NCBI GenBank assembly: GCA_036507075.1
Contig: DASXQR010000058.1
Location: forward strand, 1-23,964
DNA from: Acidobacteriota bacterium
Lineage (GTDB): Bacteria > Acidobacteriota > UBA6911 > JACQSX01
Direction of reading: 5' to 3'
DNA: 23,964 nt
Every line of letters begins with the position of its first letter. Within the stretch, counting starts at the first letter, position 1. This document shows, piece after piece, positions 1 to 23,964 of this stretch. The notes under the pieces were generated by a model. It saw only the letters and a list, made by a program, of their open reading frames with translations. It searched no databases and had not been told where the DNA came from. The position numbers and the translations under genes are program-made.

Positions 1-300
1 GATGGAGGGAGGGAGGGAGGGAGGGAGTTATGGAGGGATGGAGGGATGGAGGGAGGGAGGGAGGGAGGGAGTTATGGAGGGATGGAGGGATGGAGGGATG
101 GAGGGATGGAGGGATGGAGGGATGGAGAGATTGCTCTCATATTCCTCAGTCTCTCAATCTCTCAGTCCCTCAGTCCCTCAGTCCCTCAATCCCTCAGTCT
201 CTCAGTCTCTCAGTCTCTCAGTCCCTCAGTCCCTCAATCCCTCAGTCCCTCAGTCCCTCAGTCCCTCTATCCCTCTATCCCTCTATCCCTCCATCTCCAT
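1..300. repeat. Inverted pair of 8-bp tandem arrays (GGAGGGAT arm / TCCCTCAG arm)
   Basis: 1..~130 is GGAGGGAT/GGGA repeats with an exact 44-bp tandem duplication (1-44 = 45-88). ~142..300 is C(C/T)CTC(A/T)(G/A)T octamers, an imperfect reverse complement, ending at the PBP stop codon. The left arm is cut by the window edge. Confidence 0.95.
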
Positions 301-2606
301 CACCGCCGCGGTGTATGCGGGACCAAAGGCGAAGGGGGCTCGGACTGCCCGTCACTGATGGTGCTCAAAACAGAATCCGCCTTTTGCAGCGACTCGCTTT
401 CCACGACGGGCACGGAATGTTCCGCGCAGGGGAACTTGGGCGCGTTATCAGCCGTGAAATAGTCCGAGTACGGATATGGACAAAAGCCGGACGCCAGCAG
501 GCCGCTTCGCGAGCAGACCGTAGCCTTTACAATTCCGTCCGGAACCGCGAAGTCGGCGCGTCGAAACCTGGCAGACGTGTTTTTCATGTAATTCACCCAG
601 ATGGGAATGGCCAGCGTGGCTCCATAACCTCCGGCCATGATCTTCCGCGGCACATCAAAACCGACCCACACTCCGGTTACAACATCAGGGGTGAAGCCTA
701 TGAACCAGGCGTCGTGATAGTCATCGGTTGTGCCGGTTTTGCCGCCTGCGGGCAGTCTGAACCCGGCAGTGCGTACGCCCTGGCCGGTTCCGTGATCGAC
801 CGCATCAGACAGCATGGTGGTCATCAGGAACGCGGTCTGAGGGTCGATCACATAGCGTGTGAGGGGCTGATGCTCATAAATGACGACACCGTCTCTGTCC
901 TCAACCTTGCGAATTACGTGCGACGACACCAGTTTTCCCGCATTCGGAAAAACCGAATAGGCTCTCACCATTTCCAGCAGCGTGACTTCGCCTGCTCCCA
1001 GAGGAAGAGAAGCGACATTCGGCAGCTCTTCCTCAATGCCAAAGTCATGCGCCGTCCGAATCACACGCGACACGCCGACCAACTGCCCCAATTGCACCGC
1101 AACCGTGTTTACGGAGTTTCGCAGAGCCACACGCAGTGTCAGCGAGCCATAGCGCCTTCCTGAGTTGGAAGGAACGTAGTAACCGTCTCCGGTGGGAATC
1201 TTGACGGGATCGTCAGTGAGCATGGTCGACGGGGTCATTCCGGCCGTGAGCGCAGCCACATAAACAAAAGGCTTGAACGCAGAACCAGTCTGGCGCCTGG
1301 CGTGCACCGCCCGATTGAATTTGCTTTCCCGGTAATTGCGACCGCCCACAATGGCATAGACTTCGCCGCTGTGTGAATCCATCGACACCAGCGCACCCTG
1401 CAAATACCGGGGCGCCTCGGCCTCTCCGGCCGCCGGAACGGACGCCTGGCGCTGCAGCATAGCCAGATAGTCATCGCGTGAAGAAGCGTCCAACCGCCGG
1501 TGTTTCTCGAGCGCTGAAAGATAGTTCTCCACGCTCTGTTCCGCCAGAGCCTGCATGGACGCGTCAATGGTCGTGTACACACGCAGGCCGCCACAGAATA
1601 TGCGCTCGTTTCCGAACAGCTCCTTCAACTCTTCGCGGACATAGTCGACGGCGTAATCGGCATTTTCTGACGCCTGGTCGTGAGGCTTCACCGTCAGGAC
1701 TTCCTGCCGGGCGGATTCCGCCTGATCCGCGGAGATGTAACCGCATTCCACCATTGCGTCGAGAACCTTGTTACGCCGCTTCACGGCCAGGCTCGGATTG
1801 GTGAACGGGGAATAAAGCACGGGAGCCTTGGTAAGCCCGGCCAACGTAGCTGCCTCGGAGAGGCTCAGATCGGACGCGGGCTTTCCAAAATAGCCTTGAG
1901 AGGCGGCCTCGACTCCATAGAGCCCCGCACCGAAATAGACACGATTCAGGTACAACTCCATGATCTGGTCCTTGGTGAAGTTCGACTCCAGTCTGGCGGC
2001 AAGGCAGATCTCCTGGATCTTCCGCCAGTAGGACTTGTCAGAAGTCAGAAAGGTGTTCTTGGCAAGCTGCTGGGTCAGTGTGCTGCCCCCTTGCTGAATT
2101 CTTGCCGCAAGCAGGTTATTCCATGCGGAGCGCGCAATCGCCAGCGCGTCAAATCCAGAGTGTTGATAAAAATTTCGATCTTCAATAGCGGCCAAAGCGC
2201 GCGGCAGATGTCTTGAAATTCGAGAAAGCGGCACCCTTGTTCGATTCTTCTCATACAACGCATACAGCAGCTTGCCGTTGCGATCGAAAATGCTGGTGGT
2301 CTCCTCCATCCGGGCGGCTGCTTTCAGATCGGCCGTCCACGCCTGGGCCACGGCTGGCGAAAAATAAACCGAAACAACGATCCCGCAGATTGCGATCAGG
2401 CCGGCATAGCCGATCAGCGCGTAACGAAGCGCCGGGCGTTCTTGCAGGAGCGCTTTTGCAGCCGACCACGCCCGGCGCAACCTCGGACCGTAGCGGCGCT
2501 CCGCTTTCAGATAAAAGTAAGAAAAGCGGTGCCACATCCAAAATATCTGCATGCGTAGTTCGTCTTCTAAAGATCTGGCGATACTTACACGTCGTCTGCC
2601 AGCCAT
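300..2606 (-). CDS. Class A penicillin-binding protein (PBP1A family, transglycosylase + transpeptidase)
   Basis: GT51 motifs EDRNFYQHSG, GGSTLTQQLAKN, RKIQE, KDQIMELYLNRVYFG; transpeptidase motifs SAFK (SxxK), SVN (SxN), KTGT; N-terminal TM segment. Start moved from 2759 to ATG 2606, which has AGGGGG 7 nt upstream. Confidence 0.95.
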   Translation of the reverse strand: MAGRRRVSIARSLEDELRMQIFWMWHRFSYFYLKAERRYGPRLRRAWSAAKALLQERPALRYALIGYAGLIAICGIVVSVYFSPAVAQAWTADLKAAARMEETTSIFDRNGKLLYALYEKNRTRVPLSRISRHLPRALAAIEDRNFYQHSGFDALAIARSAWNNLLAARIQQGGSTLTQQLAKNTFLTSDKSYWRKIQEICLAARLESNFTKDQIMELYLNRVYFGAGLYGVEAASQGYFGKPASDLSLSEAATLAGLTKAPVLYSPFTNPSLAVKRRNKVLDAMVECGYISADQAESARQEVLTVKPHDQASENADYAVDYVREELKELFGNERIFCGGLRVYTTIDASMQALAEQSVENYLSALEKHRRLDASSRDDYLAMLQRQASVPAAGEAEAPRYLQGALVSMDSHSGEVYAIVGGRNYRESKFNRAVHARRQTGSAFKPFVYVAALTAGMTPSTMLTDDPVKIPTGDGYYVPSNSGRRYGSLTLRVALRNSVNTVAVQLGQLVGVSRVIRTAHDFGIEEELPNVASLPLGAGEVTLLEMVRAYSVFPNAGKLVSSHVIRKVEDRDGVVIYEHQPLTRYVIDPQTAFLMTTMLSDAVDHGTGQGVRTAGFRLPAGGKTGTTDDYHDAWFIGFTPDVVTGVWVGFDVPRKIMAGGYGATLAIPIWVNYMKNTSARFRRADFAVPDGIVKATVCSRSGLLASGFCPYPYSDYFTADNAPKFPCAEHSVPVVESESLQKADSVLSTISDGQSEPPSPLVPHTPRR

Positions 2607-2652
2607 TGACGCGCCCCCTAATCGGCTGCCACTTCCAAAACAAAAAACTCGT

Positions 2653-2669
2653 AGCAATTGCAGGGCCAA
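2653..2669 (-). promoter_or_regulatory. Candidate sigma-54 (-24/-12) promoter of the PBP gene
   Basis: Minus strand reads TTGGCCCTGCAATTGCT = TGGC-N7-TTGCW with exact consensus spacing, about 47 nt upstream of the start codon and preceded by an AT-rich tract (2670-2710). Confidence 0.5.
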
Positions 2670-2802
2670 ACTTAAAATAATATCTAAATTGCTGACATTG
2701 CTTAATTTGCATGCTAGCGCCCTAGGTCTGGCGCAAAGGCGGGGACGCATAAGCTGCATAACGCCTACTCACACTGAAATAATTGCGCCTGTGCTCGTAT
2801 GA

Positions 2803-2966
2803 AACTTTTCACCACAAAGACACAAAGAACACGAAGGGAAGACCTGGGGCGGGAAGAGGCCGGTCAGCGTCAAAAGCCCTTGCCGTGTTTACCCTTGGAC
2901 AACTGACCGGCCTCTGCCTGCCCCAGGTCTTGCTTTGTGCTCTTTGTGCCTTTGTGGTGAAAAGTT
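2803..2966. repeat. Long imperfect palindrome, 9-mer family (TTCACCACAAAG-ACACAAAG ends), MITE-like
   Basis: Arms 2803-2867 and 2903-2966 are reverse complements with about 6-7 differences and a 35-nt loop. 2934-2958 is identical to 23940-23964. Confidence 0.95.
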
Positions 2967-3014
2967 CTACCTCGAATTTTTAGTACTTAATCCCCCTCGC
3001 CGATTGATCCCGTT

Positions 3015-3042
3015 CTTTCGCGCTTTCGCGCCTTCGCGGTTC
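3015..3042. repeat. Solitary right arm related to the ACCRC-ended family (CTTTCGCG CTTTCGCG CCTTCGCGGTT)
   Basis: Three 8-nt units ending in GCGGTT, resembling the right arms at 15085 and 22124. Confidence 0.6.
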
Positions 3043-3072
3043 GCAGTAAAATTTCTATTTGCCCCTGCAACC

Positions 3073-5826
3073 ATGAAGAGACTGGCATCCGCTCTCCTCC
3101 TTCTCCTTCTCACGAATTCAATCCTCCTTGCCCAGAGCGGATGGTTCCCGTTCACCATCCCATGGGATGACGACTCAAAGACCCTAATCGACGGCTCCAA
3201 TCTGCTGGTGGACTTCCCCGGCCAGGACCCTGCTGCGGTTATCGAGGCGCGCGGCTTTGTGCGGGCGGGACAAGACGGCCACTTTTACTTTGAAAAGAGC
3301 GGCAGGCGAGCCAAGTTCTGGGGTGTGAACTTTACTTTCAATGCCGATTTCCCGCCCTGCCCGGACGAGCCGCTGCGCGCCGGTGAATATCCGGACACGC
3401 ACGTCGCCGACAAAGTAGCGCGCCATCTGGCTAAGCTCGGGGTGAATGTTGTCAGGTTTCACCACATGGATTTTTTTGCCGCTCCCAACGGTATCTTTGA
3501 TCCTCGATTCTTCCCCAATGACACGCAGCACCTTGATCCGGGTCAGTTGCGACGCCTTGATTATTTGATTTATCAGTTGCGAAGAAACGGCATTTACGCG
3601 AATTTGAATCTGAAAGTGGCGCGCCATTTTGGCGCCGGCGACGGAATCGCGGACAGCGCGCAGTTTACCGGCGGTCTCAGTTTTTTTCAGGGTGTTTCTC
3701 ACTTCAATGCGCGCATGATCGAATTGCAGAAAGATTATGCGCGCCAGCTTCTGATGCATCGAAACCCCTACACCGGTCTGGCATACAACGAGGACCCCGG
3801 CATTCTCAACGTCGAGATCGCCAATGAGGACTCTCTTTTCGGCAGCATGCTCAATGACGGCGGTCTCAATTTCGTTGCCGAGATTTCCGGATCTCTTCCG
3901 CGCCGCTACAGCGAAGAGCTGGACGAGCGATGGAACCGGTGGCTGGCCGCGCGCTACGGCAATCACGACAGGCTCCGTGTTGCCTGGAAGTCGGACGATC
4001 CCGTCGTTGACGGCAGCGACAAAATGCGAAACGGCGGCTTCGAAAATGGGATGTCCGATTGGACGGTCCAGCAGATCCCGAACGCGCAGGCATCTGCTGC
4101 GGTCGAAACCGGCAGCGGTCCGGACGGAAGCGCCGCTTTGAAAGTGCAGGTCGCGGCCGATGGAATCAACTGGCATGTGCAGGCGTTTCAGAACGGCCAC
4201 GGAATGGAAAGGGGTCGTTTTTATGAAATGACTTTCTGGGCGAAAGCAGCCGGCAGCGGCGAAATCACCATCGATGTGATGAAGGGGGCGCCTCCGTGGC
4301 AGAACTACGGCTTGAGCAAGACGTTTCAGGTGGGAACTGCGTGGACCAGGTTCAGCGCCCGTTTCCTCGCCAACGAAAGCGACGGCGTCACGGTAAGACC
4401 CACCTTCGAACTGGGAGCAAAAAACAATACGGTCTGGATCGATCAGGTGGAATTTCGCCAGTCAACGCCCCGTGACTTCGACGCCGATGAGAACCTGGAC
4501 AGCGGGAGCATCAGGCGGCCTTATCGATCCCAGCTCTCTTCGTACACGGAGGCGCGGATTCGAGACCTGTTCCGTTTCTACTCGGAATTGGACGAAAGCT
4601 ATTTTGTCGAAATGCGACGGTTCCTGAAGGAGGACCTGGAACTGCGTTCGCTGGTCACAGGCACAGCGCCCTGGTGGGACTATCTCGGCGATACGGCCAT
4701 TCAGTCCAAAATGGATTTCATAGACGGCCATTACTACTGGGACCATCCTTTCTGGGTCGGCGTCCCGGCCTGGTCTCCGACCGGTTGGCGCATACGCAAT
4801 CAGCCTCAGATAAACGATCTGCAGGACTTGGCCGGCCTGGCCGCGCAGGCTGTAGAGGGTAAGCCATTCACAGTCAGTGAATACAACTACGTCTTCCCCA
4901 ACCGTTATGCATTGGAAGGCCCGCTGTTGATGGCGTTGATCGCCAACCTTCAGGACTGGGACGCGGTATACTTGTTCGATTACGCAGGCAGCACCGCCGC
5001 TTTCGATGACGCGATTACGACGTCATTTTTTTCCCAATCCGGCAATCCCGTCAAATCTGCCCAACTACCGGTCGCCGCGCGAATCTTTATCCTCAATCAA
5101 AACATCAGCGCTTCGAACCAGCTCGTCATCGAACTGACACGCGATGAACTTGCCGCCGGCTATGCGCGCGGCCTGGTTAATGGAGCATCCTTTCTGGCAA
5201 GCAAGGGTTTGGATCGCAGGTATTTCCTCCAATCAAAGATCCGAATCGGAAATTTCGACCGGATTGATCCTGTCTCCATCGACGCGGCTTTGACGACGAC
5301 AAATGTAACATCCAGCAGCGGCGAACTGCGATGGGATCGGGAAGACGCGCAGAGGTCGTGGATGCGAGTGACGGCCAGGGGAGTTCAGGGAGCGATTGGA
5401 TTTCTTAAGGGGCGTGTTGTCGATCTGGGAGACTGGTCCTTTCAAACCGGTTCGGACACACCGGACCATCTGGCGGTTCTACTGCAGTCGGGCGAATCGG
5501 GCGATATCCGGGAATCGCGGCGCCTGATTCTCTCGGTCTGGACGGAGCATCAAAACACCGATATGGTCTGGAATGACGTGCAGACGTCGGTGGAGAACCG
5601 GTGGGGTCGCGCTCCAGCGCTGGTTCGCCCGGCCAAGGTTGACCTCGCATTCAAACTCCCCGCATCGGCCATCCGGATTCACGTGCTGGATGAAAAGGGG
5701 CAGCGCAAGGGAAGCGTTTCCGGCGAGAGCGTGCCGGGGGGTGCGCGATTTCAGATCGACACCGGGCGAGACGGCACCCTCTGGTACGAGGTGGAAATCC
5801 TGGGAAAGAGCCGGCGGATTATCTGA
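3073..5826 (+). CDS. Secreted clan GH-A glycoside hydrolase with internal CBM4/9 module (GH148-like)
   Basis: Signal peptide MKRLASALLLLLLTNSILLA. Motifs KFWGVN, GVNVVRFHH, RNPYTG, EIANED (putative acid/base), DGHYYWDHP, TVSEYN (putative nucleophile). CBM4-like segment NGGFE...WIDQV at ~4018-4461. ORF codons upstream of 3073 are repeat-derived. Confidence 0.8.
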   Translation: MKRLASALLLLLLTNSILLAQSGWFPFTIPWDDDSKTLIDGSNLLVDFPGQDPAAVIEARGFVRAGQDGHFYFEKSGRRAKFWGVNFTFNADFPPCPDEPLRAGEYPDTHVADKVARHLAKLGVNVVRFHHMDFFAAPNGIFDPRFFPNDTQHLDPGQLRRLDYLIYQLRRNGIYANLNLKVARHFGAGDGIADSAQFTGGLSFFQGVSHFNARMIELQKDYARQLLMHRNPYTGLAYNEDPGILNVEIANEDSLFGSMLNDGGLNFVAEISGSLPRRYSEELDERWNRWLAARYGNHDRLRVAWKSDDPVVDGSDKMRNGGFENGMSDWTVQQIPNAQASAAVETGSGPDGSAALKVQVAADGINWHVQAFQNGHGMERGRFYEMTFWAKAAGSGEITIDVMKGAPPWQNYGLSKTFQVGTAWTRFSARFLANESDGVTVRPTFELGAKNNTVWIDQVEFRQSTPRDFDADENLDSGSIRRPYRSQLSSYTEARIRDLFRFYSELDESYFVEMRRFLKEDLELRSLVTGTAPWWDYLGDTAIQSKMDFIDGHYYWDHPFWVGVPAWSPTGWRIRNQPQINDLQDLAGLAAQAVEGKPFTVSEYNYVFPNRYALEGPLLMALIANLQDWDAVYLFDYAGSTAAFDDAITTSFFSQSGNPVKSAQLPVAARIFILNQNISASNQLVIELTRDELAAGYARGLVNGASFLASKGLDRRYFLQSKIRIGNFDRIDPVSIDAALTTTNVTSSSGELRWDREDAQRSWMRVTARGVQGAIGFLKGRVVDLGDWSFQTGSDTPDHLAVLLQSGESGDIRESRRLILSVWTEHQNTDMVWNDVQTSVENRWGRAPALVRPAKVDLAFKLPASAIRIHVLDEKGQRKGSVSGESVPGGARFQIDTGRDGTLWYEVEILGKSRRII

Positions 5827-5830
5827 GCCG

Positions 5831-5963
5831 GCGGGTTACGGGTTTGCGGGTTGCGGGTTGGCGGGCTTCGGGTTGCGCCAACCCGCACCGGAACGCGGCA
5901 CCCGGCACCCGCAAACCCGGAACGCGGAACCCGCCAACCCGAAACCCGGAATTCGTAATTCGT
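5831..5963. repeat. Inverted pair of GCGGGTT / AACCCGC heptamer arrays between convergent genes
   Basis: 5831-5876 (G)CGGGTT units and 5879-5963 AACCCG(C/G) units fill nearly the whole spacer between the stops at 5826 and 5971. Confidence 0.93.
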
Positions 5964-5970
5964 AGCGCGT

Positions 5971-7266: not shown

Positions 7267-7348
7267 GTGAGTTTGAGCAATCCTTTTTTCCAAAGCTGAT
7301 GGCTGCTAACATATCAGAAAAGCTCCTGTAAACTTCTGGGAGGGTGTG

Positions 7349-8362: not shown

Positions 8363-8388
8363 TGTTTCAGAGCTAGGAAACTACTTTG

Positions 8389-8543
8389 AAATGCGGATTT
8401 CGGAATGCGGAATGCGGAATAGGGAGAAGATTTGGTTTCTCAGTATCGAAGATTTAATCTGGACATATTCCGTATTCCCCACATTCCCAATTCCGCATTC
8501 CGCATTCCCAATTCCGCATTCCCAATTCCGCATTCCGCATTCC
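8389..8543. repeat. Inverted pair of ATGCGGA / TTCCGCA heptamer arrays between convergent genes
   Basis: Left arm 8389-8424 and right arm 8466-8543 (ATTCCGC/ATTCCCA units). The right arm ends immediately at the methyltransferase stop (8544). Confidence 0.95.
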
Positions 8544-9368
8544 CTACTTCCTTCTCATCAGCAACAACATTCCAAGAGAGCCTAGCCCGAGGGCTTCGCC
8601 CTGCATGGAGCCGTAGGCGTGAAAATCGGTGAATCCGCACCTCTCGGCCAGCCGGCACAGCTCTCCGCAACTGTAAACCCGCTGTGACGCAGGACGTGTT
8701 TCCATCTTTCCATCTCGAATAAACGTGTAATCTATTTCCAACCGGGAACTATATACGTCGTAGCGCCCCGCGGACAGAAAACAGATGTCGCCAATCTGAA
8801 ACCATTTCCTTTCCTGGTAGTGGGGCAGCAGGGCTTCGGCACAGCTTCCGCTGATGATAAAACCGGCTCCAGATTTCAGTGTGCCGGCCATAGCGGTAAG
8901 AAATTGCTCGTTTTCGTGGTCCTGCAGATAGCCAAAGCTGTTTCCAAAACAAAACGCTCCGTCAAAGGCAGCTTCCCACGGAAGGTCGCGCATATCACTG
9001 CACTTCCAATGCACGCGGTTATGCAGCATCTCGGAGGCAGCTCTTGCCTGGTCGATATTCTCCGGGGCAATGTCCACACCGGTCACATGCAGTCCCCGCG
9101 CGGCCAGTTCCAGGGCCAGCCGGCCATTTCCGCAAGGCACGTCAAGCACATGGTCGCGCGGGTTCAGTTGCAGCATGCTCTGAATGAAGTCGGCTTCCTT
9201 TCGGGTCTGTTCCGAGCTCATTGCCGCCTTCCAAAAATCCAGCGCGATGCCATGAAAGAAAGTGCTCCACCAGTCATGCGGCGCGGTGGCCCCTTCATCG
9301 CGGCTTCCTGAAAGCGGCGCTCCTGTCGTTGAATTCGAACTCAAAGTAGTCTTTTGTTGCTGTGACAT
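8544..9368 (-). CDS. Class I SAM-dependent methyltransferase
   Basis: Motif I VLDVPCGNGR, VTGVD, SDMRDLP, FDGAFCFGNSFGY. Confidence 0.92.
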   Translation of the reverse strand: MSQQQKTTLSSNSTTGAPLSGSRDEGATAPHDWWSTFFHGIALDFWKAAMSSEQTRKEADFIQSMLQLNPRDHVLDVPCGNGRLALELAARGLHVTGVDIAPENIDQARAASEMLHNRVHWKCSDMRDLPWEAAFDGAFCFGNSFGYLQDHENEQFLTAMAGTLKSGAGFIISGSCAEALLPHYQERKWFQIGDICFLSAGRYDVYSSRLEIDYTFIRDGKMETRPASQRVYSCGELCRLAERCGFTDFHAYGSMQGEALGLGSLGMLLLMRRK

Positions 9369-9592
9369 GGGATTGTTTCCTTTTTACTTGGCGCGGTCCG
9401 AGCATGGGCGCTCAAACCACAGCCAAGGTTAGTGTTTCGAAAGCAAATACTGCCGAGGGTACCCGGGGTGTAAAACAGCCTTACAGTACGATGTACCGTT
9501 TTCCAGCCCGGCGGTATAGAGGGATCTGGTTAGACAATCATAGGCGTTAGCGGAATATGATAACCCACCTGGAGCGAAGATCGAAAAACTTA

Positions 9593-9632
9593 TTCACCAC
9601 AGAGACACAGTGCAGCATTGCCGCAACCAAAA
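9593..9632 (+). repeat. 40-bp motif TTCACCACAGAG-N15-GCCGCAACCAAAA (copy 1)
   Basis: The same two blocks with identical spacing recur at 13346 and, degenerate, at 23677. Confidence 0.8.
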
Positions 9633-9685
9633 AGCCATCTACGTCCACGAGCACGAGCACGTCAACGGGCACGACTACGATTACG
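9631..9685. repeat. Solitary 6-bp-period ACGNNY array
   Basis: AAAGCCATCT ACGTCC ACGAGC ACGAGC ACGTCA ACGGGC ACGACT ACGATT ACG; close to the reverse complement of 20732-20787. Confidence 0.9.
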
Positions 9686-9734
9686 CCTGACGTCCAACGT
9701 ATTCAGATTCGGTCGCCGTGGAACGCCGTGTTCA

Positions 9735-9765
9735 ATTCCGCATTCCGCATTCCGAAATCCACATT
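9735..9765. repeat. Solitary TTCCGCA-family arm
   Basis: ATTCCGCATTCCGCATTCCGAAATCCACATT differs by one base from 17359-17389 and lies 20 nt past the stop of the sigma-4 gene. Confidence 0.9.
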
Positions 9766-9785
9766 TTAAATTAAGCCGCTGCTGA

Positions 9786-10031
9786 TTAGACGTGAGCCTG
9801 GGTCAAAGAACGACGCAAGGAGCGGTAAAACAGGGTGTAGGCGGTATTGATCAAGGAAGCGATGTCTTTCTCACTGACCCGCACTTGATTTGCAATTTCG
9901 GCAGGCGTTTTTCCATGGTAACGGCTGAGAACAAAGACCTGGCGCAACAATTCGGGCATCTCATTGATGCTTGCCAGAATCAGGTCAAACAATTCCTCTC
10001 TGGTCTCCTGAGCTTTTAATGTCTGCTGCAT
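9786..10031 (-). CDS. Small stand-alone sigma-70 region 4-like helix-turn-helix protein (81 aa)
   Basis: SINEMPELLRQVFVLSRYHGKTPAEIANQVRVSEKDIASLINTAYTLF matches the ECF region-4 pattern (LP..R.VF.L....G.S..EIA..L..S...V...L..A). GGGAGAGG lies just upstream of ATG 10031. The upstream ORF extension is REP-derived. Confidence 0.75.
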   Translation of the reverse strand: MQQTLKAQETREELFDLILASINEMPELLRQVFVLSRYHGKTPAEIANQVRVSEKDIASLINTAYTLFYRSLRRSLTQAHV

Positions 10032-10073
10032 AAATCCTCTCCCGATAACCCGTAAACCCGACTTTCGCGACGC

Positions 10074-10172
10074 CTGGAGAGACGGCCTGAGGGCCGTCTC
10101 TCGGCGATGTAAACTGCCAAGCTGAGACGGCCTGAGGGCCAAACTGAGACGGCCTGAGGGCCGTCTCTCCAG
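10074..10172. repeat. REP-like palindrome cluster (GAGAGACGGCC-TGAG-GGCCGTCTCTC; two full or near-full copies, one truncated)
   Basis: Copies at 10077-10102 (11-bp stem, 4-nt loop), 10124-10140 (partial) and 10146-10167. The cluster is bounded by a 14-bp inverted repeat, 10074-10087 / 10159-10172. Confidence 0.92.
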
Positions 10173-10404
10173 TCCCAAAGATGTCCAAACTCCACGCAGC
10201 GACGCGGCATGTCACGTCACTACAAATGTCGAAAACTCCCGAACCAGGCGCCGGTTCTTCTTATTAGACTGAACTCGCAAAAAAAGGTTGGCCAAAATCA
10301 AACTTCCAACGCAGGCTGCGCAAAATTGGACTGCCTCGGTATGCTAACGGCAGAGGCAAGCGCTCTGCCGGGAGGTTTCCCGGGCTGCTTGCCAGGGAGG
10401 CACA

Positions 10405-10917: not shown

Positions 10918-10947
10918 ACTGGCATCCGCTGATATACAAAACGCTTC

Positions 10948-12016: not shown

Positions 12017-12126
12017 CGCTTTCACCGCCGAGCCGCCGAGCACGCCAAGCTGCGCAGAGGTTAGCAACGGGATCTCTGCGGAAACTCGGCGTTCTTTGCG
12101 GCTCTGCGGTGAGTGCAACGTGGCCG
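12017..12126 (+). mobile_element. 110-bp MITE-like palindromic element, 9-mer family (copy A)
   Basis: TTCACCGCCGAGCC...GGCTCTGCGGTGA hairpin. A homologue of the same length lies at 18212-18321 and shares the non-palindromic tail CAACGTGGCCG. Mobility is inferred from dispersal only. Confidence 0.7.
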
Positions 12127-12160
12127 CCCCATCAGTCTTGCCGATGGAAGCCCAGTGGCG

Positions 12161-13198: not shown

Positions 13199-13291
13199 AC
13201 AGCTTCCCTCCAAAAGTTGGACTGCGGTTAAACCGTCAGCAACTCGGCGCTTGCCGTAGCTTCGAACCCCCAAAATCAGTCTAGCATCGCA

Positions 13292-13307
13292 TGCAAACCG
13301 ATTCCCA
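13292..13307 (-). promoter_or_regulatory. Weak candidate sigma-54 promoter of the OmpA gene
   Basis: Minus strand TGGGAATCGGTTTGCA = GG-N10-GC with TTGCA, but the -24 box deviates from TGGC. Confidence 0.25.
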
Positions 13308-13345
13308 TTTTGAGTCCCTGGTTTGGCTGCCATCGGGAAAAAAAC

Positions 13346-13385
13346 TTCACCACAGAGGTCGAGCGCGGCGAAGCCGCAACCAAAA
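13346..13385 (+). repeat. 40-bp motif TTCACCACAGAG-N15-GCCGCAACCAAAA (copy 2)
   Basis: Contains the mini-hairpin GCGGC-GAA-GCCGC; spacing identical to the copy at 9593. Confidence 0.8.
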
Positions 13386-13390
13386 GTCAA

Positions 13391-13461
13391 GGAGAGACGG
13401 CCTGAGGGCCGTCTCTCTGCGGTGTCCTGCCAAGCTGCGACGGCCCTCAAGCCGTCTCTCC
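13391..13461. repeat. REPIN-like doublet: two inverted REP-like palindromes with conserved spacer
   Basis: 13392-13417 is identical to 10077-10102. 13439-13461 is an inverted copy with loop variant CTCA. Spacer segment TGCCAAGCTG is shared with the 10074 cluster. Confidence 0.9.
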
Positions 13462-13524
13462 GCTCCCGAATAATTTGCGCAGGCCGCGAAAATTCTCATG
13501 GTTAGTAGTACAGAGGACACAGAA

Positions 13525-13642
13525 TTGTCCGTTGTCCGTGGCCCATTGTCAGTTGCCGCTCCTGTCGGACAGTATGCAATAACCACTGACAACGGGTCAC
13601 TGACAACGGGCCACTGACAACGGGCCACTGACAACGGACAAC
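13525..13642. repeat. Inverted heptamer arrays TTGTCCG / (CACTGAC-AACGGGC)x4
   Basis: Left arm 13525-13555; right arm 13584-13642 with four 14-bp units. Confidence 0.93.
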
Positions 13643-13742
13643 TTGCAGCCAAACTAGATCCCTACCCGAATTCTCTATCTTCTTGACTCTTCTGCCCCTG
13701 TTCGAAGCAAAATAGAAACCACCTTTTTCTTCCGAGGAGCCC

Positions 13743-15032
13743 ATGACGATCAGCCGCAGAGATTTCGTGAAAACGTCCGTTGCAGCGACCTTTGCCTTTC
13801 CCGCGATTCGCGTCGCCGGAGCGCAAAACTCCAGATATCGTACGGCCCTGGTCGGGACCGGCTGGTGGGGAATGAACATCCTCGGCGTCGCAATGGAATC
13901 TGGAGCATGCAAGGTTATTGCCATGTGCGACGTGGATCAGAACCAACTGGATCCTGCCGTGGAGCGCGTCGTCAAGGCGAGCGGGGACCAGCCTAAGAAA
14001 TACCACGATTATCGCGAGCTTCTGAATCAGGAAAAACCCGAAATAGTGATCGTGGCGACGCCCGATCACTGGCACCCGCTGGTGATGATTGCAGCCGTGC
14101 AGGCGGGAGCGCACGTGTATGTGGAAAAACCGATCGGCCACACCATCAGGGAAGGGCGCGCCATGGTCAGGGCGGCGCGTGAAAGCAATCGTATTGTCCA
14201 GGTGGGAACCCACCGCCGGGTCTCTCCGCACAACGTATCCGGCATGAATTTTCTCAAATCAGGTAAGGCCGGAAAGATTGGAATGGCGCGAGCCTTCGTG
14301 CATTACGGGGGAGGCCCAGGACAAAAAACTGCGGATTCGGAGCCGCCGCCGGGCTTGGATTGGAACATGTGGTGCGGTCCGGCGCCGTATCGCGCATTCA
14401 ACAAGGCCATCCACCCGAAGGGCTTTCGCCAGTTTCTTGATTATGCCAACGGTACGCTTGGAGACTGGGGAATCCACTGGATGGATCAAATCCTGTGGTG
14501 GACCGATGAGAAGTATCCAAAGAAGGTCTTTTCCGCGGGCGGACGCCACATAAAGCGCGACACCACCGACGCACCCGACACCCAGGTGGCCAGCTTTGAA
14601 TTCGAAACATTCACAGCCGTGTGGGAGCATCGCCAGTATGCCCATAACAACGCCGAGAAAACGAACATCGGCGCTTACTTTTACGGCACGGAAGGCACCT
14701 TCCACATGGGATGGCAGGATGGCTGGACCTTCTATCCGGCCGACCCGAAGAAGCCGGTGATCCATGAAGAGCCGAAGCTGAACAAGCCCGACGATCAGAA
14801 CATCCGGGAACTCTTTGCCGATTTTCTGGAGAGCGTCAAGACCGGAAGACGATCGCTGTGCGACATTGAAGTGGGACATCGTTCCACCAACATGAGTCTT
14901 CTGGGAATGCTGTCGCTGAAACTGGGGAGAAGCATTCGATGGGACGGCGAAAAAGAGGAGATCATCGGCGACCCTGAAGCAAACAAGCTCCTCAGTCGCC
15001 CCTACCGGGCGCCCTGGGTATATCCGGCCTGA
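13743..15032 (+). CDS. Gfo/Idh/MocA family oxidoreductase with twin-arginine signal
   Basis: GAGGAG RBS; SRRDFVK Tat motif; GTGWWG nucleotide-binding motif, ATPDHWH, YVEKP, LDWNMWCGPAP, DWGIHWMD. Confidence 0.93.
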   Translation: MTISRRDFVKTSVAATFAFPAIRVAGAQNSRYRTALVGTGWWGMNILGVAMESGACKVIAMCDVDQNQLDPAVERVVKASGDQPKKYHDYRELLNQEKPEIVIVATPDHWHPLVMIAAVQAGAHVYVEKPIGHTIREGRAMVRAARESNRIVQVGTHRRVSPHNVSGMNFLKSGKAGKIGMARAFVHYGGGPGQKTADSEPPPGLDWNMWCGPAPYRAFNKAIHPKGFRQFLDYANGTLGDWGIHWMDQILWWTDEKYPKKVFSAGGRHIKRDTTDAPDTQVASFEFETFTAVWEHRQYAHNNAEKTNIGAYFYGTEGTFHMGWQDGWTFYPADPKKPVIHEEPKLNKPDDQNIRELFADFLESVKTGRRSLCDIEVGHRSTNMSLLGMLSLKLGRSIRWDGEKEEIIGDPEANKLLSRPYRAPWVYPA

Positions 15033-15106
15033 GTTACGGGTTGGCGGGTCGACCGGTTACGGGTTCAGTGGTGAAAAAGAAATTCTTCGCGTTCTTGGCG
15101 GTTCAA
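15031..15106. repeat. Two mismatched half-arrays between convergent genes (GCGGGTT-type arm plus 9-mer right arm)
   Basis: 15031-15065 GAGTTACGGGTTGGCGGGTCGACCGGTTACGGGTT overlaps the Gfo stop; 15085-15106 CTTCGCGTTCTTGGCGGTTCAA resembles 22131-22153. Confidence 0.75.
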
Positions 15107-15121
15107 TTTTTTCTCACGTTC

Positions 15122-16429: not shown

Positions 16430-16502
16430 AGAGCCCAAATCCTATCATTGAATCCAAGATTCAGCACAAAGACATAGCCCGGCCGTAGACAAAAAGCCAA
16501 GG

Positions 16503-16741
16503 ACGGCCACGTGCACGTCAACGATAGACGTCAACGACCACGTCTTACGCCCTACGAGCACGATCACCACAACCTCCACGTCCTGCGTTCACGAGCACAC
16601 CGACGTCCCAGGTCGACGATTACGACAAAATGATCAGTTTCAATTCTCTGCAGCCCTGCGCCCCACCGGGCAAGATTGTGGACGTAATCGTAGACGTGGG
16701 CGTGCCCGTGGACGTGGGACGTGGACGTGCTCGTGAACGTG
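16503..16741. repeat. Inverted pair of 6-bp-period arrays (ACGNNY / RNNCGT) in a divergent spacer
   Basis: Left arm 16503-16626, right arm 16678-16741; preceded by a degenerate copy of the 40-bp motif at 16460-16500. Confidence 0.88.
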
Positions 16742-16777
16742 AGACTCGGAATCCTCTTTGGGTGTATAACTCAATGC

Positions 16778-17314
16778 ATGAAAAAATCCGAGTTGCGCAT
16801 CGAGAAGGCAACAGAAAAGGACGTTCCACTGCTGCTGCAATTCATCAAGGAGCTCGCCGAATACGAAAAACTGTCCCATGCCGTTGTAGCCACAGAAGAG
16901 ATGGTAAGGCGCTCTCTGTTTGGTGAAACGCCGCGCGCCGAAGCAATCATCGCCTATTGCGCGGAATCTCCCGCGGGTTTTGCGCTCTTCTTCCACAACT
17001 TTTCTACCTTTCTTGGCCGGGCCGGCATCTACCTTGAAGATCTTTACGTCCGCCCTCCGATGCGCGGCAAAGGAACAGGCCGGGCGCTGCTGGCCTGCCT
17101 GGCGGACCTGGCGCGCGAGCGGGACTGTGGCCGGATGGAATGGGCCGTGCTGGATTGGAATGAACCCGCGATCCGGTTTTACAGAAAACTCGGCGCCGTC
17201 ACGCTCGATGATTGGAAAGTTTGCCGCCTCAGCGGCGAAGCTCTCCAGAGGCTGGCAGGGGAATGGGATCCGGGCCTTCCGAATGCGGATTCCGGAATGC
17301 GGAATGCGGAATAG
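16778..17314 (+). CDS. GNAT N-acetyltransferase (diamine/spermidine acetyltransferase-like)
   Basis: FIKELAEYEKL, GFALFFHNFSTFLG..GIYLEDLYVRP..RGKGTG, RMEWAVLDWNEPAIRFYRKLGA. The last ~12 codons come from the ATGCGGA repeat arm. Confidence 0.92.
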   Translation: MKKSELRIEKATEKDVPLLLQFIKELAEYEKLSHAVVATEEMVRRSLFGETPRAEAIIAYCAESPAGFALFFHNFSTFLGRAGIYLEDLYVRPPMRGKGTGRALLACLADLARERDCGRMEWAVLDWNEPAIRFYRKLGAVTLDDWKVCRLSGEALQRLAGEWDPGLPNADSGMRNAE

Positions 17315-17396
17315 AAACAATTTTGTGTGGGCCCTGAGAGACTTAGAAAGTATTCCGTATTCCGCATTCCGCATTCCGAAATCCGCATTCGGAAGG
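17275..17396. repeat. 39-bp inverted repeat, ATGCGGA/TTCCGCA family
   Basis: 17275-17313 versus 17358-17396, one mismatch; the left arm lies inside the GNAT coding sequence. Confidence 0.95.
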
Positions 17397-17424
17397 ACGC
17401 TGGAAGACTCGCGGGCAATTGCCA

Positions 17425-17958: not shown

Positions 17959-18004
17959 GGCCCGAGGGAGCGACCGGCCAAAGAAGTTTGGTAGCTTGGT
18001 GAAG

Positions 18005-18401
18005 CCGGGTTGCGGGTTGACGAGTTGCGGGTTGGCGAGTTGACGAGTTGCGGGTTGACGAGTTGCGGTTGGCGAGTTGCGGGTTGGCGAGTTGCGGGTT
18101 TCAGTTGGCGAAATGGAAAACTCAAGATTCGAATTCCCCGGGCACGGCAGTCGTCGACATAGCCGTGGTCGTTGCCGTGCGCGAATCAAAGGACTGCTTG
18201 ATTCTGCACTCCGCTTTCACCGCCGAGCCACGGGGATCGCCAAGATTTCGCAGAGTCTGCAACTCAAGCTCTGCGAAACCTCGGCGTACTCAGCGGCTCG
18301 GCGGTGAATACAACGTGGCCGTCTTTACAGGCGACTTATCGACAGTCCGGAACCCGACAACCCGGAACTCGTAACCCGACAACCCGGAACCCGCAAACTC
18401 G
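18005..18401. repeat. GCGGGTT/CGAGTT and AACCCG inverted arms enclosing other repeat elements
   Basis: Left arm 18005-18110, right arm 18347-18401. The interior holds a degenerate hexamer palindrome (~18142-18181) and the 110-bp element copy B. Confidence 0.9.
18212..18321 (+). mobile_element. 110-bp MITE-like palindromic element, 9-mer family (copy B)
   Basis: Collinear with 12017-12126: identical first 18 nt (CGCTTTCACCGCCGAGCC) and last 11 nt (CAACGTGGCCG). Confidence 0.7.
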
Positions 18402-18404
18402 GGC

Positions 18405-19217: not shown

Positions 19218-19236
19218 TGATTTCGCTGCGTGCAAG

Positions 19237-19367
19237 GTTGTCGGGTTATCCGGTTTCGGGTTCCGGGTTGCGAGTTGAACTGGCTTGGTGTCTTGGTGGT
19301 AAAAATGATGAACCACCAAGGCACCAAGCCAGTTCAATTCACAACCCGCAACCCGTAACCCGCCAAC
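19237..19367. repeat. Composite hairpin: GCGGGTT-family outer arms around a 26-bp inner inverted repeat
   Basis: Inner 19275-19300 / 19312-19337 has one mismatch and an 11-nt loop and contains CTTGGTGTCTTGGTGGT / ACCACCAAGGCACCAAG; outer heptamer arms extend the stem. Confidence 0.93.
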
Positions 19368-19369
19368 TT

Positions 19370-19408
19370 TGACTAGTGACTGATAACCAATGACCAATGA
19401 CTAATGAC
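19370..19408. repeat. TGACYAA heptamer array (STRR2-like)
   Basis: TGACTAG TGACTGA TAACCAA TGACCAA TGACTAA TGAC, ending 6 nt from the alaC stop. Confidence 0.85.
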
Positions 19409-19414
19409 CGATAT

Positions 19415-20608: not shown

Positions 20609-20678
20609 TATCCCTCCAGTTCGATGCCCGATTGTAACAGCCAGGTATTATCTCCTGGATAGAGTTTCAAAGTTTTTC

Positions 20679-20787
20679 AAAACCGTCCACGTCTATGTCC
20701 ACGTGTCATGACCACGTCAACGTACGGCAGGCGTTGACGTGCCCGTGGTCGTTGACGTGCTCGTGCTCGTAGACGTGGACGGCTTTT
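20679..20787. repeat. Inverted pair of 6-bp-period arrays in a divergent spacer
   Basis: 20679-20722 (AAAACCGTCCACGTCT...ACGTCAACG) and 20732-20787 (CGTTGACGT...AGACGTGGACGGCTTTT). Confidence 0.92.
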
Positions 20788-20928
20788 CTTTTGGCTGTCG
20801 CGTTGCGGCCACCGTACACTCGTGGAAGTAGCCGTGGCTCGCTTCTATTTTGCGTGCATAGCGCGCCAATAACTCGATAGTGCGCAGTCGCCACACCTGC
20901 CCCTTCTCCTTCTGTGTAACATGGAATC

Positions 20929-21990
20929 ATGAGCGTCAGTAGAAATCTTGAAGTGGAGCGCCTTAGCGAGCAGGAGGACGTCAAAAGGGCTCTTGAGCAA
21001 ACTGCCGGGGCGGGAAAACCGGAGATCCCATCCGCTCCGCCCAAAGAAAAAATCTGGCTGGGCACATATGGTTTGCTGCTCGTCGTCTTTGCCGCCGTTC
21101 ATTATCTGCTCCGTTTGAAACTGGTGCCCTTGCCTGCACGCCTTTCTCCCGTGCTGATCAGAATCACGCTTGGCGTGATGGCAATGATCGTAGTGCTGGC
21201 CGCCTCAAAGATCGTGGATGTTTACTCGATCGGCTACATCAGCAGCGCAGTGTCCAGATATAACCTGCGGCGCATTCGACGCCTCTTTACCGGACTGGTA
21301 ATTGCGCTCATCCTGCTGTCGATCGCGTTTGTCAATTGGTACACAGCGTTTGTCTCTCTGGGGCTGATCTCTCTCATCCTGGGCTTTGCGCTGCAGACTC
21401 CAATCACCAGCTTTATCGCATGGATTTACATTCTGGTCCGGGAACCTTATCGCGTCGGAGACAGAATCAAAGTCGGTGAGGCAAGCGGCGACGTGATCGA
21501 TGTGAGCTATCTGGACACGACGCTCTGGGAGTTCGGAGGCCAGTACCTTTCCACCGATCACCCCAGCGGCCGTATCATCAAGTTTCCAAATTCAAGGATT
21601 CTTAATTCGCCGGTCTACAATTACTCGTGGCCGTTGTTTCCTTACATCTGGAATGAAATAAAGTTTCAGGTCGGCTACGACAGCGATCTCGAATTTGTCG
21701 CCACCACAATGCAAAGAGTTGCCGAAGAAGACCTCGGCACCGCAATGCTGGAACGGATCAAGGTATTTCGCGATCTGCTGGCAAAGACGCCGGTTGACGA
21801 GCTGACGGTTCAGGAGCGGCCGGTGGTGATGTTCCGCGTTGGCGACAACACGTGGCTGGAAGCAATCGTGCGTTACGTGGTGCCTCCCAGGGAAGCAGGA
21901 AGAGTGAAAACCAGGCTGATCCGAAAGATGCTGGCTGAATTGAACACCCAGCCCGAGCGGGTGCGCTTTCCCAAGGGCGACGCGCGGTAA
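20929..21990 (+). CDS. Small-conductance mechanosensitive channel (MscS family)
   Basis: N-terminal TM helices; LGFALQTPITSFIAW, PYRVGDRIKVGEASGDVIDV, IIKFPNS, VYNYS. Confidence 0.92.
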   Translation: MSVSRNLEVERLSEQEDVKRALEQTAGAGKPEIPSAPPKEKIWLGTYGLLLVVFAAVHYLLRLKLVPLPARLSPVLIRITLGVMAMIVVLAASKIVDVYSIGYISSAVSRYNLRRIRRLFTGLVIALILLSIAFVNWYTAFVSLGLISLILGFALQTPITSFIAWIYILVREPYRVGDRIKVGEASGDVIDVSYLDTTLWEFGGQYLSTDHPSGRIIKFPNSRILNSPVYNYSWPLFPYIWNEIKFQVGYDSDLEFVATTMQRVAEEDLGTAMLERIKVFRDLLAKTPVDELTVQERPVVMFRVGDNTWLEAIVRYVVPPREAGRVKTRLIRKMLAELNTQPERVRFPKGDAR

Positions 21991-21997
21991 AAACATT

Positions 21998-22158
21998 AAA
22001 CCGCCAAAGAGCGCAAAGAGAAAGCTAAAACCGCCAAGAGCGCCAAGACCGCCAAGTCAACGGAACGACCCGCCTGAGATCGTCTGGAGTTGAAACAAAC
22101 CGCTACGATCTTCAGTTTATTCTCTTGGCGCTCTTTGCGCTCTTGGCGGTTCAGCTTT
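21998..22158. repeat. 9-mer family inverted repeat (AACCGCCAAG-AGCGCCAAG) with duplicated left arm
   Basis: Left arms 21998-22020 and 22021-22056; right arm 22124-22158 lies within the last codons of the NCS1 gene. Confidence 0.9.
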
Positions 22159-23616
22159 GAAGGTCCCCATCCATACCCAGTAAACCACCCCGGCAATCGC
22201 AAAGCCCACAAACCACGCGTACGAATATAAGCCCTGAAAAAACGCTCCCGCGCGCCAATGCCCCGGGAAAGCCTGCGAAAGAAAGCCCGGTATGTTCGGC
22301 GCCACGCCTGCCATCAGAGCGATCAGCGCCGCCGGATTGACTCCGCCGTGGTACTCGTAATCCCCTCCCCGGACATACAGGTCTGCCGCCCGCAACTCCC
22401 GTCTTCGAATGATGAAATAGTCGACGATCATAATCCCGCCGATTGGACCGAGAAGCGCCGAGTAACCGATCAGCCAGGTGAAAATGTATCCGTGCGACGA
22501 TTCAATCAGCTTCCACGGCATGATGAGAATTCCAATGACTGCGGTAATCATCCCTCCCATTCGAAACGAAATCCGCCCGGGGCGCAGATTGGAAAAATCA
22601 TTGGCGGGCGAGACCACATTGGCGGCGATGTTAGTGGACAAAGTCGCCACAGAGAGCGCCACAATGCTGACCAGAACGGTCAACAGCCCGCCTACTCTGC
22701 CCATCAACTCGATCGGATCCCAGATTACTTTGCCAAAAATCAACGGTGTCGCCGACGTGACCGCCACCCCGATGAAGGCGAAGAGAGTCATAGTGGTGGG
22801 AAGTCCCAGTGCCTGGCCGACCATCTGGTCCCGCTGTGATCTGGCGTACCGGGTGAAGTCGGGAATGTTCAAAGAGAGCGTTGCCCAATAGCCCACCATG
22901 GCTGTGAGAGACGGAAAAAAAACCGGCAGGAACGAATCCAGCGATGCAAAACTAGAGGGGCGGCTGAGTATCGGCCCCCATCCTCCGGCGCGCACGTAAG
23001 CCCAGGCCAGAAGCGCCAGCCCCATTGCGATCAGGAATGGCGCGGCAAGCGATTCCATCCACTTAATCGATTCCGTGCCCTTCCAGATAAAGTAGACGTT
23101 GACCATCCAAAAGAGCATGAACGACAGGAACTGGCCCAGCGTAATGCCGACAAACGAAGGCATCACGTCGGGCAGGTACGTTCGGCCGGGAAAAAGTGTC
23201 AGCCCCAGTTGGTAAATCGCCTCTCCTCCGATCCATGTCTGGATGCCAAACCATCCGCAAGCCACAAATGCCCGCAGCATTGCCGGAACGTTGGCTCCCA
23301 GCACGCCGAACGAGGATCGGGCCAGCACGGGAAAAGGAATGCCGTACCTGGTTCCGGCATGCGCATTCAAGATCATTGGAATCAGGACTATCAAGTTCCC
23401 CAGCGAAATCGTAAAAATCGCCTGCTTCCAGTTCATTCCCGAGTCAATCAAACCGGATGCCAGCGTGTAGGTCGGGACACAAACCGCCATCCCAACCCAG
23501 AGCGCCGCGATATGCCAGAGGTTCCAGGTGCGCTGCGATGGCAAAGTAGGCGCCAGGTCCGGATTGAAAAGGCGCGGGTCGCGGGAGGGGATTGTCGAGT
23601 TATCGCGGTGAGTCAA
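22117..23616 (-). CDS. NCS1 nucleobase:cation symporter (uracil/allantoin/cytosine permease family)
   Basis: NPDLAP, ALWVGM, YGIPFPVLARSSFG..GA, VACGWFGIQTWIGG, YWATLSLNIPDFTRYA, NIAANVVSPANDF, PWKL, YAWFVG. TTG start uncertain. Confidence 0.95.
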   Translation of the reverse strand: MTHRDNSTIPSRDPRLFNPDLAPTLPSQRTWNLWHIAALWVGMAVCVPTYTLASGLIDSGMNWKQAIFTISLGNLIVLIPMILNAHAGTRYGIPFPVLARSSFGVLGANVPAMLRAFVACGWFGIQTWIGGEAIYQLGLTLFPGRTYLPDVMPSFVGITLGQFLSFMLFWMVNVYFIWKGTESIKWMESLAAPFLIAMGLALLAWAYVRAGGWGPILSRPSSFASLDSFLPVFFPSLTAMVGYWATLSLNIPDFTRYARSQRDQMVGQALGLPTTMTLFAFIGVAVTSATPLIFGKVIWDPIELMGRVGGLLTVLVSIVALSVATLSTNIAANVVSPANDFSNLRPGRISFRMGGMITAVIGILIMPWKLIESSHGYIFTWLIGYSALLGPIGGIMIVDYFIIRRRELRAADLYVRGGDYEYHGGVNPAALIALMAGVAPNIPGFLSQAFPGHWRAGAFFQGLYSYAWFVGFAIAGVVYWVWMGTFKAEPPRAQRAPRE

Positions 23617-23676
23617 GGGTTTGATTTTTTAGACGTGTATTTAACACCGTTCTGGCCCTGGGAGGTGTGAAAAAAA

Positions 23677-23713
23677 TTCACTACAACGGCGCAGCCCGGC
23701 AAAGCCGCACCAA
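23677..23713 (+). repeat. 40-bp motif, degenerate copy 3
   Basis: TTCACTACAACG-N15-GCCGCACCAA has the same 27-nt offset between blocks and the mini-hairpin CGGC-AAA-GCCG. Confidence 0.65.
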
Positions 23714-23768
23714 GCAGAGGATGTTCACGCTTGGCAGCCTGATCGTCATAGGCTGATGTTGAAAGTCG

Positions 23769-23874
23769 CATTCCTTCACCGCAGAGGCGCAGAGAACGCA
23801 GCGGGTGCGCAGAGACGTGCAAACGAAACTCTGCGCATTCTCTGCGTCCTCTGCGCCTCTGCGGTGAAGGAATG
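23769..23874. repeat. 46-bp inverted repeat, 9-mer family (TTCACCGCAGAG-GCGCAGAG ends)
   Basis: 23769-23814 versus 23829-23874, four mismatches, 14-nt loop. Confidence 0.95.
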
Positions 23875-23939
23875 TAAGTGCCAGACAAAACTTTGTAAAA
23901 AAGCGAGAAGTTGCCAACCTGTTACACAAGGCGCCACTT

Positions 23940-23964
23940 TTTGTGCTCTTTGTGCCTTTGTGGT
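23940..23964. repeat. 9-mer family right arm, cut by the window end
   Basis: 25 nt identical to 2934-2958. Confidence 0.9.

Follow-up and report, generated by a model that had tools for sequence, protein, structure and literature searches.

The closest described counterparts of the elements reported here are the REPIN/RAYT systems, in which repetitive extragenic palindromic (REP) sequences form inverted extragenic doublets (REPINs) able to fold into hairpins; these reach hundreds of copies and belong, in any one genome, to several groups, each linked to a gene close by, that of a REP-associated tyrosine transposase (RAYT), and a non-autonomous mobility has been proposed for them (PMC3116915). 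Open reading frame (ORF)-bearing intervening sequences (IVS) of 23S rRNA, such as the S23p-encoding IVS of Coxiella and those of Leptospira cited in the same paper, have terminal inverted repeats, variable heptamers upstream of the gene and a sporadic distribution, and are described there only in rRNA (PMC4990558). Intergenic 7-mer arrays have been reported from Xanthomonas and Nostoc, with 70-75 inverted pairs per Xanthomonas genome and no mobile-element link found (PMC4692102), and likewise from Beggiatoaceae as TAACTGA repeats (PMC4679880); the terms "four helix" and "S23" are absent from the main texts of both papers, and the inverted heptamer pairs of Xanthomonas are already in print in the first of them without a gene link. 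Here we analyzed an Acidobacteriota contig (DASXQR010000058.1, assembly GCA_036507075.1), the whole 23,964 nucleotides of which are referred to as the window. Its spacers carry gene-less cassettes with inverted arms of tandem 6-9-nt units, relatives of which elsewhere enclose a four-helix-bundle (TIGR02436) or a GxxExxY (TIGR04256) gene, and on balance these cassettes have probably been copied to new junctions by the four-helix-bundle and GxxExxY proteins, which would work on single-stranded DNA while the cell is competent.

The evidence best supports a system of two parts on the REPIN model, though with other proteins. The cassettes are extragenic inverted doublets able to form hairpins and resemble REPIN/RAYT in working, but the partner enzyme and the form of the repeat place them outside that group: their arms are tandem 6-9-mer arrays rather than single palindromes, and the enclosed genes belong to PF05635 or PF13366 rather than to the HUH Y1 enzymes, which occur here only with a separate REP palindrome family. 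A putative competence-type promoter inside the cassette is a further difference. The TGGTC family presumably resembles cyanobacterial STRR2 repeats, and about ten units occur in this genome, compared with one or two per genome in Xanthomonas, Nostoc and Beggiatoaceae. The ORF-bearing 23S IVS encode the same four-helix-bundle family, whereas the filled cassettes lie between protein genes, have a promoter-like motif and hundreds of gene-less copies, and exist in a second version with a nuclease gene. The same protein family includes Avd, the accessory protein of diversity-generating retroelements (DGRs; PF22296, homology in PMC10053308), XCC0516/2GSC and 2RLD, but no reverse transcriptase or DGR template was found in the filled cassettes of the source genome. 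Like miniature inverted-repeat transposable elements, the cassettes are gene-less, with terminal inverted repeats of fixed polarity, dispersed homologous copies in subfamilies, and nesting; unlike them, they have no DDE or other known transposase partner, and by eye no consistent target duplication was evident in recent copy pairs. A literature search, with most subscription papers and supplements outside its reach, returned no paper in which a cassette of gene plus arms, or the promoter of one, is described.

The source assembly (G000; 6.12 Mb, 233 contigs, 56% G+C, 96% complete) yielded 4782 genes in our own gene calling, and the window, its entire contig C58, comprises 17 genes and 18 spacers. 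The 17 genes have ordinary housekeeping or transport functions throughout, with no four-helix-bundle, GxxExxY or Y1 gene among them, and an Rfam search of the window gave 0 matches. A preliminary description of this DNA had reported repeats in 16 of the 18 spacers, only 7267-7348 and 10918-10947 being free of them, and unit lengths of 6, 7, 8 and 9 nt, all of which we found. Scored for tandem or inverted repeats against 100 dinucleotide shuffles per spacer, 15 spacers were significant (p<=0.01); the sixteenth, 15033-15121, was not significant by itself but has two unpaired half-arms matching genome-wide families. The arrangement of arm, core and reverse arm that had been ascribed to all of them is present in 13 spacers, while 9369-9785 and 15033-15121 have unpaired arms and 10032-10404 carries a REP-type palindrome instead of tandem arms. 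Several unit families do exist, but they are not all unrelated as had been stated, since the 8- and 9-mers form one superfamily with the common end TT(C/A)ACC(A/G)C. Polarity, thought to be fixed in each family, is nearly so (235:15, 136:5, 99:1, 113:1). The exception is the CACxAAG family (179:64), which is seen in reversed form at 19284-19328. Several spacers contain nested elements from two to four families.

Ten motif families, defined from Tandem Repeats Finder output, were scanned across the genome with three shuffles as control. A left-right arm pair was present in 953 of 3784 spacers, against 0-1 in the shuffles, and an arm of at least three units in 1443, against 3-11. The cores, which had been supposed to be unique, often are not: of 14 window cores tested, 8 are matched by 4-290 homologues at other places in G000, and genome-wide 447 of 937 have a homologue (174 at >=90% identity, 37 at >=97%). 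Copied units span 70-222 nt in the pairs listed, none exceeding 350 nt, and near-identical copies occur at unrelated loci in both orientations; 32 of 1105 elements sit entirely within the core of another family. We compared orthologous spacers in genomes of the same family (G001-G004), using ~0.6 Mb from G001 and G003 plus some loci of G002 and G004. With a strict detector, arrays were found in neither genome at 58 of 136 junctions orthologous to G000, in one only at 46, in both with different units at 27 and with a unit in common at 5, a few of these rows being gene-call errors. Several cases are clean, with genes that abut in one genome and are separated by a 100-480-nt cassette in the other; in the window, the junction between the VWA and OmpA genes has a cassette in G000 and none in G001. 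The empty forms are dispersed copies whose presence changes from one related genome to the next. The preliminary description had named low copy number and a lack of presence/absence differences as marks of local microsatellites, and neither was found.

Local slippage at each array, with the inverted partner arising by template switching and no system behind it, would account for the variable unit number and for the 490 of 937 cores that have no detected homologue. It would not account for common cores at distant loci, fixed polarity, conserved ends, an association with particular genes, or the 100-480-nt blocks at junctions whose genes abut in a relative. The cores of H1, the most abundant heptamer family, are AT-rich, divergent yet related, and have a sharp length peak at 43-44 nt, with 80 of 123 above the shuffle maximum. 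Slippage alone is very improbable and already largely refuted.

The link to four-helix-bundle and GxxExxY genes, put forward for other genomes in the preliminary description, is borne out in G000 itself, where arms of the window families flank 7 TIGR02436 loci (8 matches, one gene being split) and 6 TIGR04256 loci. Most of these filled loci lie between such arms as judged by eye; several are frameshifted or truncated, one of them being fused directly to its right arm. A full cassette consists of a left arm, a promoter-like motif, one gene of ~110-140 aa and the reverse-complement right arm. We extended the comparison to 190 loci drawn as best matches, not as a random sample, from G000, its relatives, the phylum and other phyla. 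With 6 four-helix-bundle loci and 1 GxxExxY locus excluded for short flanks, the locus's own flanks were inverted-matching at 102 of 137 four-helix-bundle loci (against 2.5% of mismatched flank pairs) and 34 of 46 GxxExxY loci (against 9.6%). Eight window families are each represented among the 190 loci by one or more gene-filled cassettes in which both arms match, and no arm family was matched on both sides at both protein types. Arm periods are mainly 7 (68 loci) and 8 (16) for four-helix-bundle genes, which are accompanied by G-rich 6/7/8-mers, and 9 (18) and 8 (11) for GxxExxY genes, which are accompanied by CRC-N-RAG 8/9-mers.

The unit varies from locus to locus, yet the two arms of each locus remain complementary. 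Arm sequence is correlated with protein identity in Mantel tests of GxxExxY (rho 0.46, p 0.001, n=27) and of four-helix-bundle loci (rho 0.10, p 0.008, n=73). A TGGTC-type unit is common to close homologues from Planctomycetota and Chloroflexota, and an 8-mer variant to two Bacteroidota homologues, others in that clade being different. Among 201 genomes of the phylum, which are related and not independent and in which an unpublished genome (G052) forms one row that by itself decides none of the results, 118 have the four-helix-bundle family and 77 GxxExxY; at least two CRC-N-RAG arms were present in 55 of the 77 genomes with a GxxExxY gene and in 10 of the 124 without. An automatic arm-pairing search for filled cassettes found no third partner family, although it was insensitive and missed most known filled copies.

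GxxExxY corresponds to PF13366, a PD-(D/E)XK family, and shows its conserved D...E-x-K motif, with D62, E72 and K74 invariant in 32 of 32 sequences. It had no match at E<=0.1 among sequences of solved structures, and in the ESM Atlas it met GxxExxY clusters only. The four-helix-bundle protein is PF05635, matches 2GSC (E 1.6e-36) and 2RLD, and also matches PF22296; a protein of the 2GSC/2RLD type is described as a pentamer whose function is not known (PMC4990558). In two relatives (G001:C383, G003:C73), dprA is followed at a distance of ~0.4-0.6 kb by a broken GxxExxY gene in the same orientation.

The motif upstream of the cassette genes consists of an A/T-rich stretch, TTCG(C/T)A, ~17 nt and GTTATGT, in many cases immediately ahead of the start codon. 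A matrix built from 11 cassette upstream regions alone has recA, comEA, ssb, comM, comEC, radC, comF and dprA among its top matches, and also retrieves recG, recQ, pcrA and a pilin. In the reverse direction, a matrix from 12 host genes only scored 11 of 13 cassette loci at 19.6-43 bits, with 36 of 4782 genes reaching 15; the two loci missed are 5'-truncated or broken copies. A refined matrix gave 71 sites of at least 25 bits in G000, where shuffled sequence reached 16 at most; among these sites are those of 11 Y1/RAYT-type genes and of some cassettes without a gene that retain the motif only. The best score within the window was negative. The motif is common to DNA-uptake and recombination genes and absent from SOS genes, as expected of a competence regulon. 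SOS control was rejected, candidates for lexA, uvrA, uvrB and dinB, chosen by motif, all scoring <0. In the family relatives the motif precedes 14 of 23 four-helix-bundle and 7 of 10 GxxExxY loci, sits between arm and gene wherever a four-helix-bundle locus could be scored (13 of 13), and is also found before ssb, recA, comEA, pcrA, radA, dprA, comM and an integron integrase. A variant stands before comM, yraN and the four-helix-bundle genes of G005, and another before dprA and one four-helix-bundle gene in genus g39.

Transposases of the Y1/RAYT type, or an element that inserts at hairpins, could themselves be the true mobilisers, with the four-helix-bundle and GxxExxY genes as cargo between the arms. 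At least 11 Y1/RAYT-type genes have the same motif, and REP arms are mixed into the same spacers together with this hairpin-targeting element, which has 152 copies and whose end lies mostly after a GxxExxY-type arm (25 contexts listed). However, each Y1 gene has its own non-tandem REP arms, whereas tandem arms enclose four-helix-bundle or GxxExxY genes across many phyla and the protein family sets the unit class; we regard this explanation as improbable. The REP-type palindrome has 144 copies and flanks two decayed transposase-like ORFs (C82, C17). Ends of the hairpin-targeting element, which inserts within GxxExxY-type arms and carries 6-mer arrays or REP palindromes, lie at 9620, 13373, 20790 and 23704 of the window, and one copy on C37 encloses a four-helix-bundle gene.

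The timing implied by the motif, shared with comM, dprA and recA and in G005 with yraN, would also suit a homing or anti-curing role, in which the proteins would cut or bind, at the hairpins, incoming single strands or D-loops, letting filled alleles convert their empty counterparts or escape removal by transformation without any jump to new loci. Inserted DNA is described as being lost by transformation more readily than gained, and the PD-(D/E)XK nucleases YraN and CoiA as working at the D-loop (PMC13663708). Ectopic copying is needed to explain near-identical copies at unrelated loci in both orientations, and GxxExxY has no specific kinship to YraN, a relationship that was rejected on an hhalign probability of 14% over 8 columns. 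Homing without ectopic copying is improbable.

The elements might instead function as RNA, like the 23S IVS, with a stem that is cut by RNase III and is either tolerated or regulates mRNA decay, and with passive spread by recombination or gene conversion. The Coxiella IVS combines terminal inverted repeats, heptamers, an S23p gene and RNase III excision (PMC4990558). Stems in the window are stable by folding (z -7.1 at 1-297, z -9.5 at 19243-19409), and outside this lineage the gene is often close to the arm and lacks the motif. The arms are mainly intergenic, and convergent junctions are occupied more often (45%) than co-directional ones (28%), but divergent junctions are filled as often as the latter (32%). 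The putative promoter lies inside the left arm, so that this arm would be absent from the cassette's own transcript, and a site-specific regulatory role is hard to square with units that differ between orthologous junctions. An RNA element would also leave the conserved nuclease site without a reason, and we consider this alternative unlikely.

Returning to copying by the cassette proteins, we infer every step from expression to insertion as follows. An alternative sigma factor would recognise the motif as a promoter in competent cells, and from it the rare filled cassettes would supply protein in trans while the many empty hairpins are copied. Each protein would recognise its own arm unit on a folded single strand. 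Y1 enzymes and integron integrase act on single-stranded hairpins, and single-stranded DNA is the likely substrate here because the motif regulon also holds these enzymes. GxxExxY would cut through its intact D..ExK site. The four-helix-bundle pentamer may bind the hairpin or recruit a host enzyme, which is the weakest step since the 2GSC/2RLD protein has no known function. The hairpin would then be inserted, with host repair, at AT-rich gene junctions or into existing hairpins, and arm length would drift afterwards by slippage, the two arms staying matched. The preliminary view of the cassettes as empty, non-autonomous forms is thus upheld in that they have filled relatives and are gene-less; the cassette proteins would have mobilised them, and an origin by loss of the gene is a further possibility, for which intergenic DNA gave no new gene remnants.

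Several observations weigh against this reading. The coupling to competence is limited to one lineage while the cassettes are widespread: sharing of the motif was observed in this family, in its order and in a single genus besides. A strict pattern did not find it in 200 other phylum genomes, nor was it present at 59 cassette loci of the phylum or 78 of other phyla. No motif common to the upstream regions of four-helix-bundle genes and dprA was evident in 20 genomes further out, in a weak test whose g39 positive control reached only the 95th percentile. The four-helix-bundle family has no known catalytic site and only E67 as an invariant residue, and its Mantel signal is weak and comes from pairs of >60% identity, for which co-inheritance alone is a sufficient explanation. 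Family H1 has no filled copy in the 96% complete G000, the metagenome collection lying outside that search, and a single filled copy was found, in G001 (L160). Only a few promoter-only derivatives of the cassettes exist. A profile search of all intergenic DNA recovered the known partial loci only and no new gene remnants in empty cores. In recent copy pairs judged by eye, whose ends are ragged or nested, neither a target duplication nor a sharp end was consistently seen. Metagenome contigs of a near-identical strain, which break at repeats, showed no clean empty allele, and no excised or transposing intermediate was seen in the assembled contigs.

G000 has 44 sigma70-type matches. A lead to the regulator of the motif is a pair of genes for an extracytoplasmic function (ECF) sigma factor and a zinc-finger anti-sigma factor at G000:C17:70862-72081, with the motif directly before the anti-sigma gene and with recG and two more motif sites nearby. 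The motif is also carried by a gene of 472 aa with no Pfam or NCBIfam match (L043, G000:C192:97720-99135), whose homologues in four g39 genomes (L398-L401) have the motif variant of their lineage, making it a candidate for a new competence gene of unknown function. Further motif-bearing genes of unknown family are L033, L034, L036 and L060 (G000 C97, C48, C28 and C87), the first with a motif-bearing homologue in G001 (L196). A motif-bearing Y1 transposase cassette lies just upstream of yraN at G000:C122:12828-13968, and, judged by positions, the motif stands before yraN in G001 and G005 without that Y1 gene. In G002:C22 an integron integrase (L197) is under a competence-type motif and has no evident LexA box, although no search was aimed at such a box.

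The window opens with a G-rich 8-mer cassette of four-helix-bundle type at 1..297 (filled relative L007); its left arm (1-133) is truncated at the contig end, its core spans 134-146 and its right arm 147-297. A CACxAAG cassette of GxxExxY type at 2808..2962 has a self-complementary core with 84 other copies and is followed by an unpaired right arm of the CGCxAAG family, recognised from its sequence, at 3015..3045. A GGGTT heptamer cassette of four-helix-bundle type (filled relative L005) lies at 5831..5951, and an H1 cassette with a 46-nt AT-rich core, whose filled relative is the G001 copy, at 8390..8544. At 9596..9690 on the plus strand, a GxxExxY-type half arm broken by the end of a hairpin-targeting element at 9620 precedes an unpaired CACGT 6-mer arm, and 9735..9765 is an unpaired H1 right arm. 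A REP-type palindrome cluster (10079, 10146) occupies 10076..10170; directly below it, on the minus strand at 9786-10031, is a lone sigma-70 region 4 ORF of 81 aa, possibly a truncated ECF sigma gene. The cassette missing from the VWA-OmpA junction of G001 (L325) is of CxCAGAG, GxxExxY type, at 12021..12113. In the nested stack at 13347..13645, a GxxExxY-type arm is split by a hairpin-targeting element (13373-13511; REP palindrome at 13394; 42 copies, best 98.6%), followed by a TGGTC heptamer cassette (13525-13642).

The half-arms at 15031..15100 are a GGGTT left arm and a CGCxAAG right arm. A CACGT 6-mer cassette of four-helix-bundle type (filled relatives L004, L163, L164) lies at 16500..16741, and an H1 cassette at 17277..17391, where the upstream GNAT frame runs through the left arm. 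At 18006..18400 a GGGTT cassette surrounds a CxCAGAG cassette (18216-18308) and 6-mer remnants; at 19243..19409 another surrounds the reversed CACCAAG pair and is followed by an unpaired arm of the TGGTC family (19370-19409). A second CACGT 6-mer cassette at 20685..20800 has its hairpin-targeting-element end on the minus strand. The CGCxAAG 9-mer cassette of GxxExxY type at 21998..22152 (filled relative L010) lies between convergent genes, its right arm overlapping the permease 3' end; genes 16778-17314 and 22117-23616 both extend into a repeat arm before their stop, so that their last residues are cassette-derived. The stretch 23680..23964 (17 other copies, best 97.8%) holds a hairpin-targeting-element end and a CxCAGAG cassette (23775-23868) and closes, at the contig end, with a right arm of the CACxAAG family.

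More broadly, and only as a tentative possibility, the four-helix-bundle and GxxExxY proteins may be two unrecognised mobilising classes, each reading its own 6-9-nt unit on a single-stranded hairpin, which gave rise to intergenic heptamer repeats and ORF-bearing 23S IVS and which in this lineage are wired into the competence regulon, so that their action would be confined to times at which single-stranded DNA and recombination proteins are at hand. Two widespread families of unknown function would thereby gain a specific DNA substrate and a condition of expression, and intergenic heptamer repeats and ORF-bearing rRNA intervening sequences a possible origin. If the unit specificity is true, the proteins would be very small (~120 aa) sequence-specific single-strand binders or cutters that come in nature with a wide range of specificities. 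For an uncultured lineage, the motif outlines a candidate competence regulon, and the apparent convergence of selfish elements of three unrelated protein classes on the host competence promoter bears on whether transformation purges or spreads mobile DNA.

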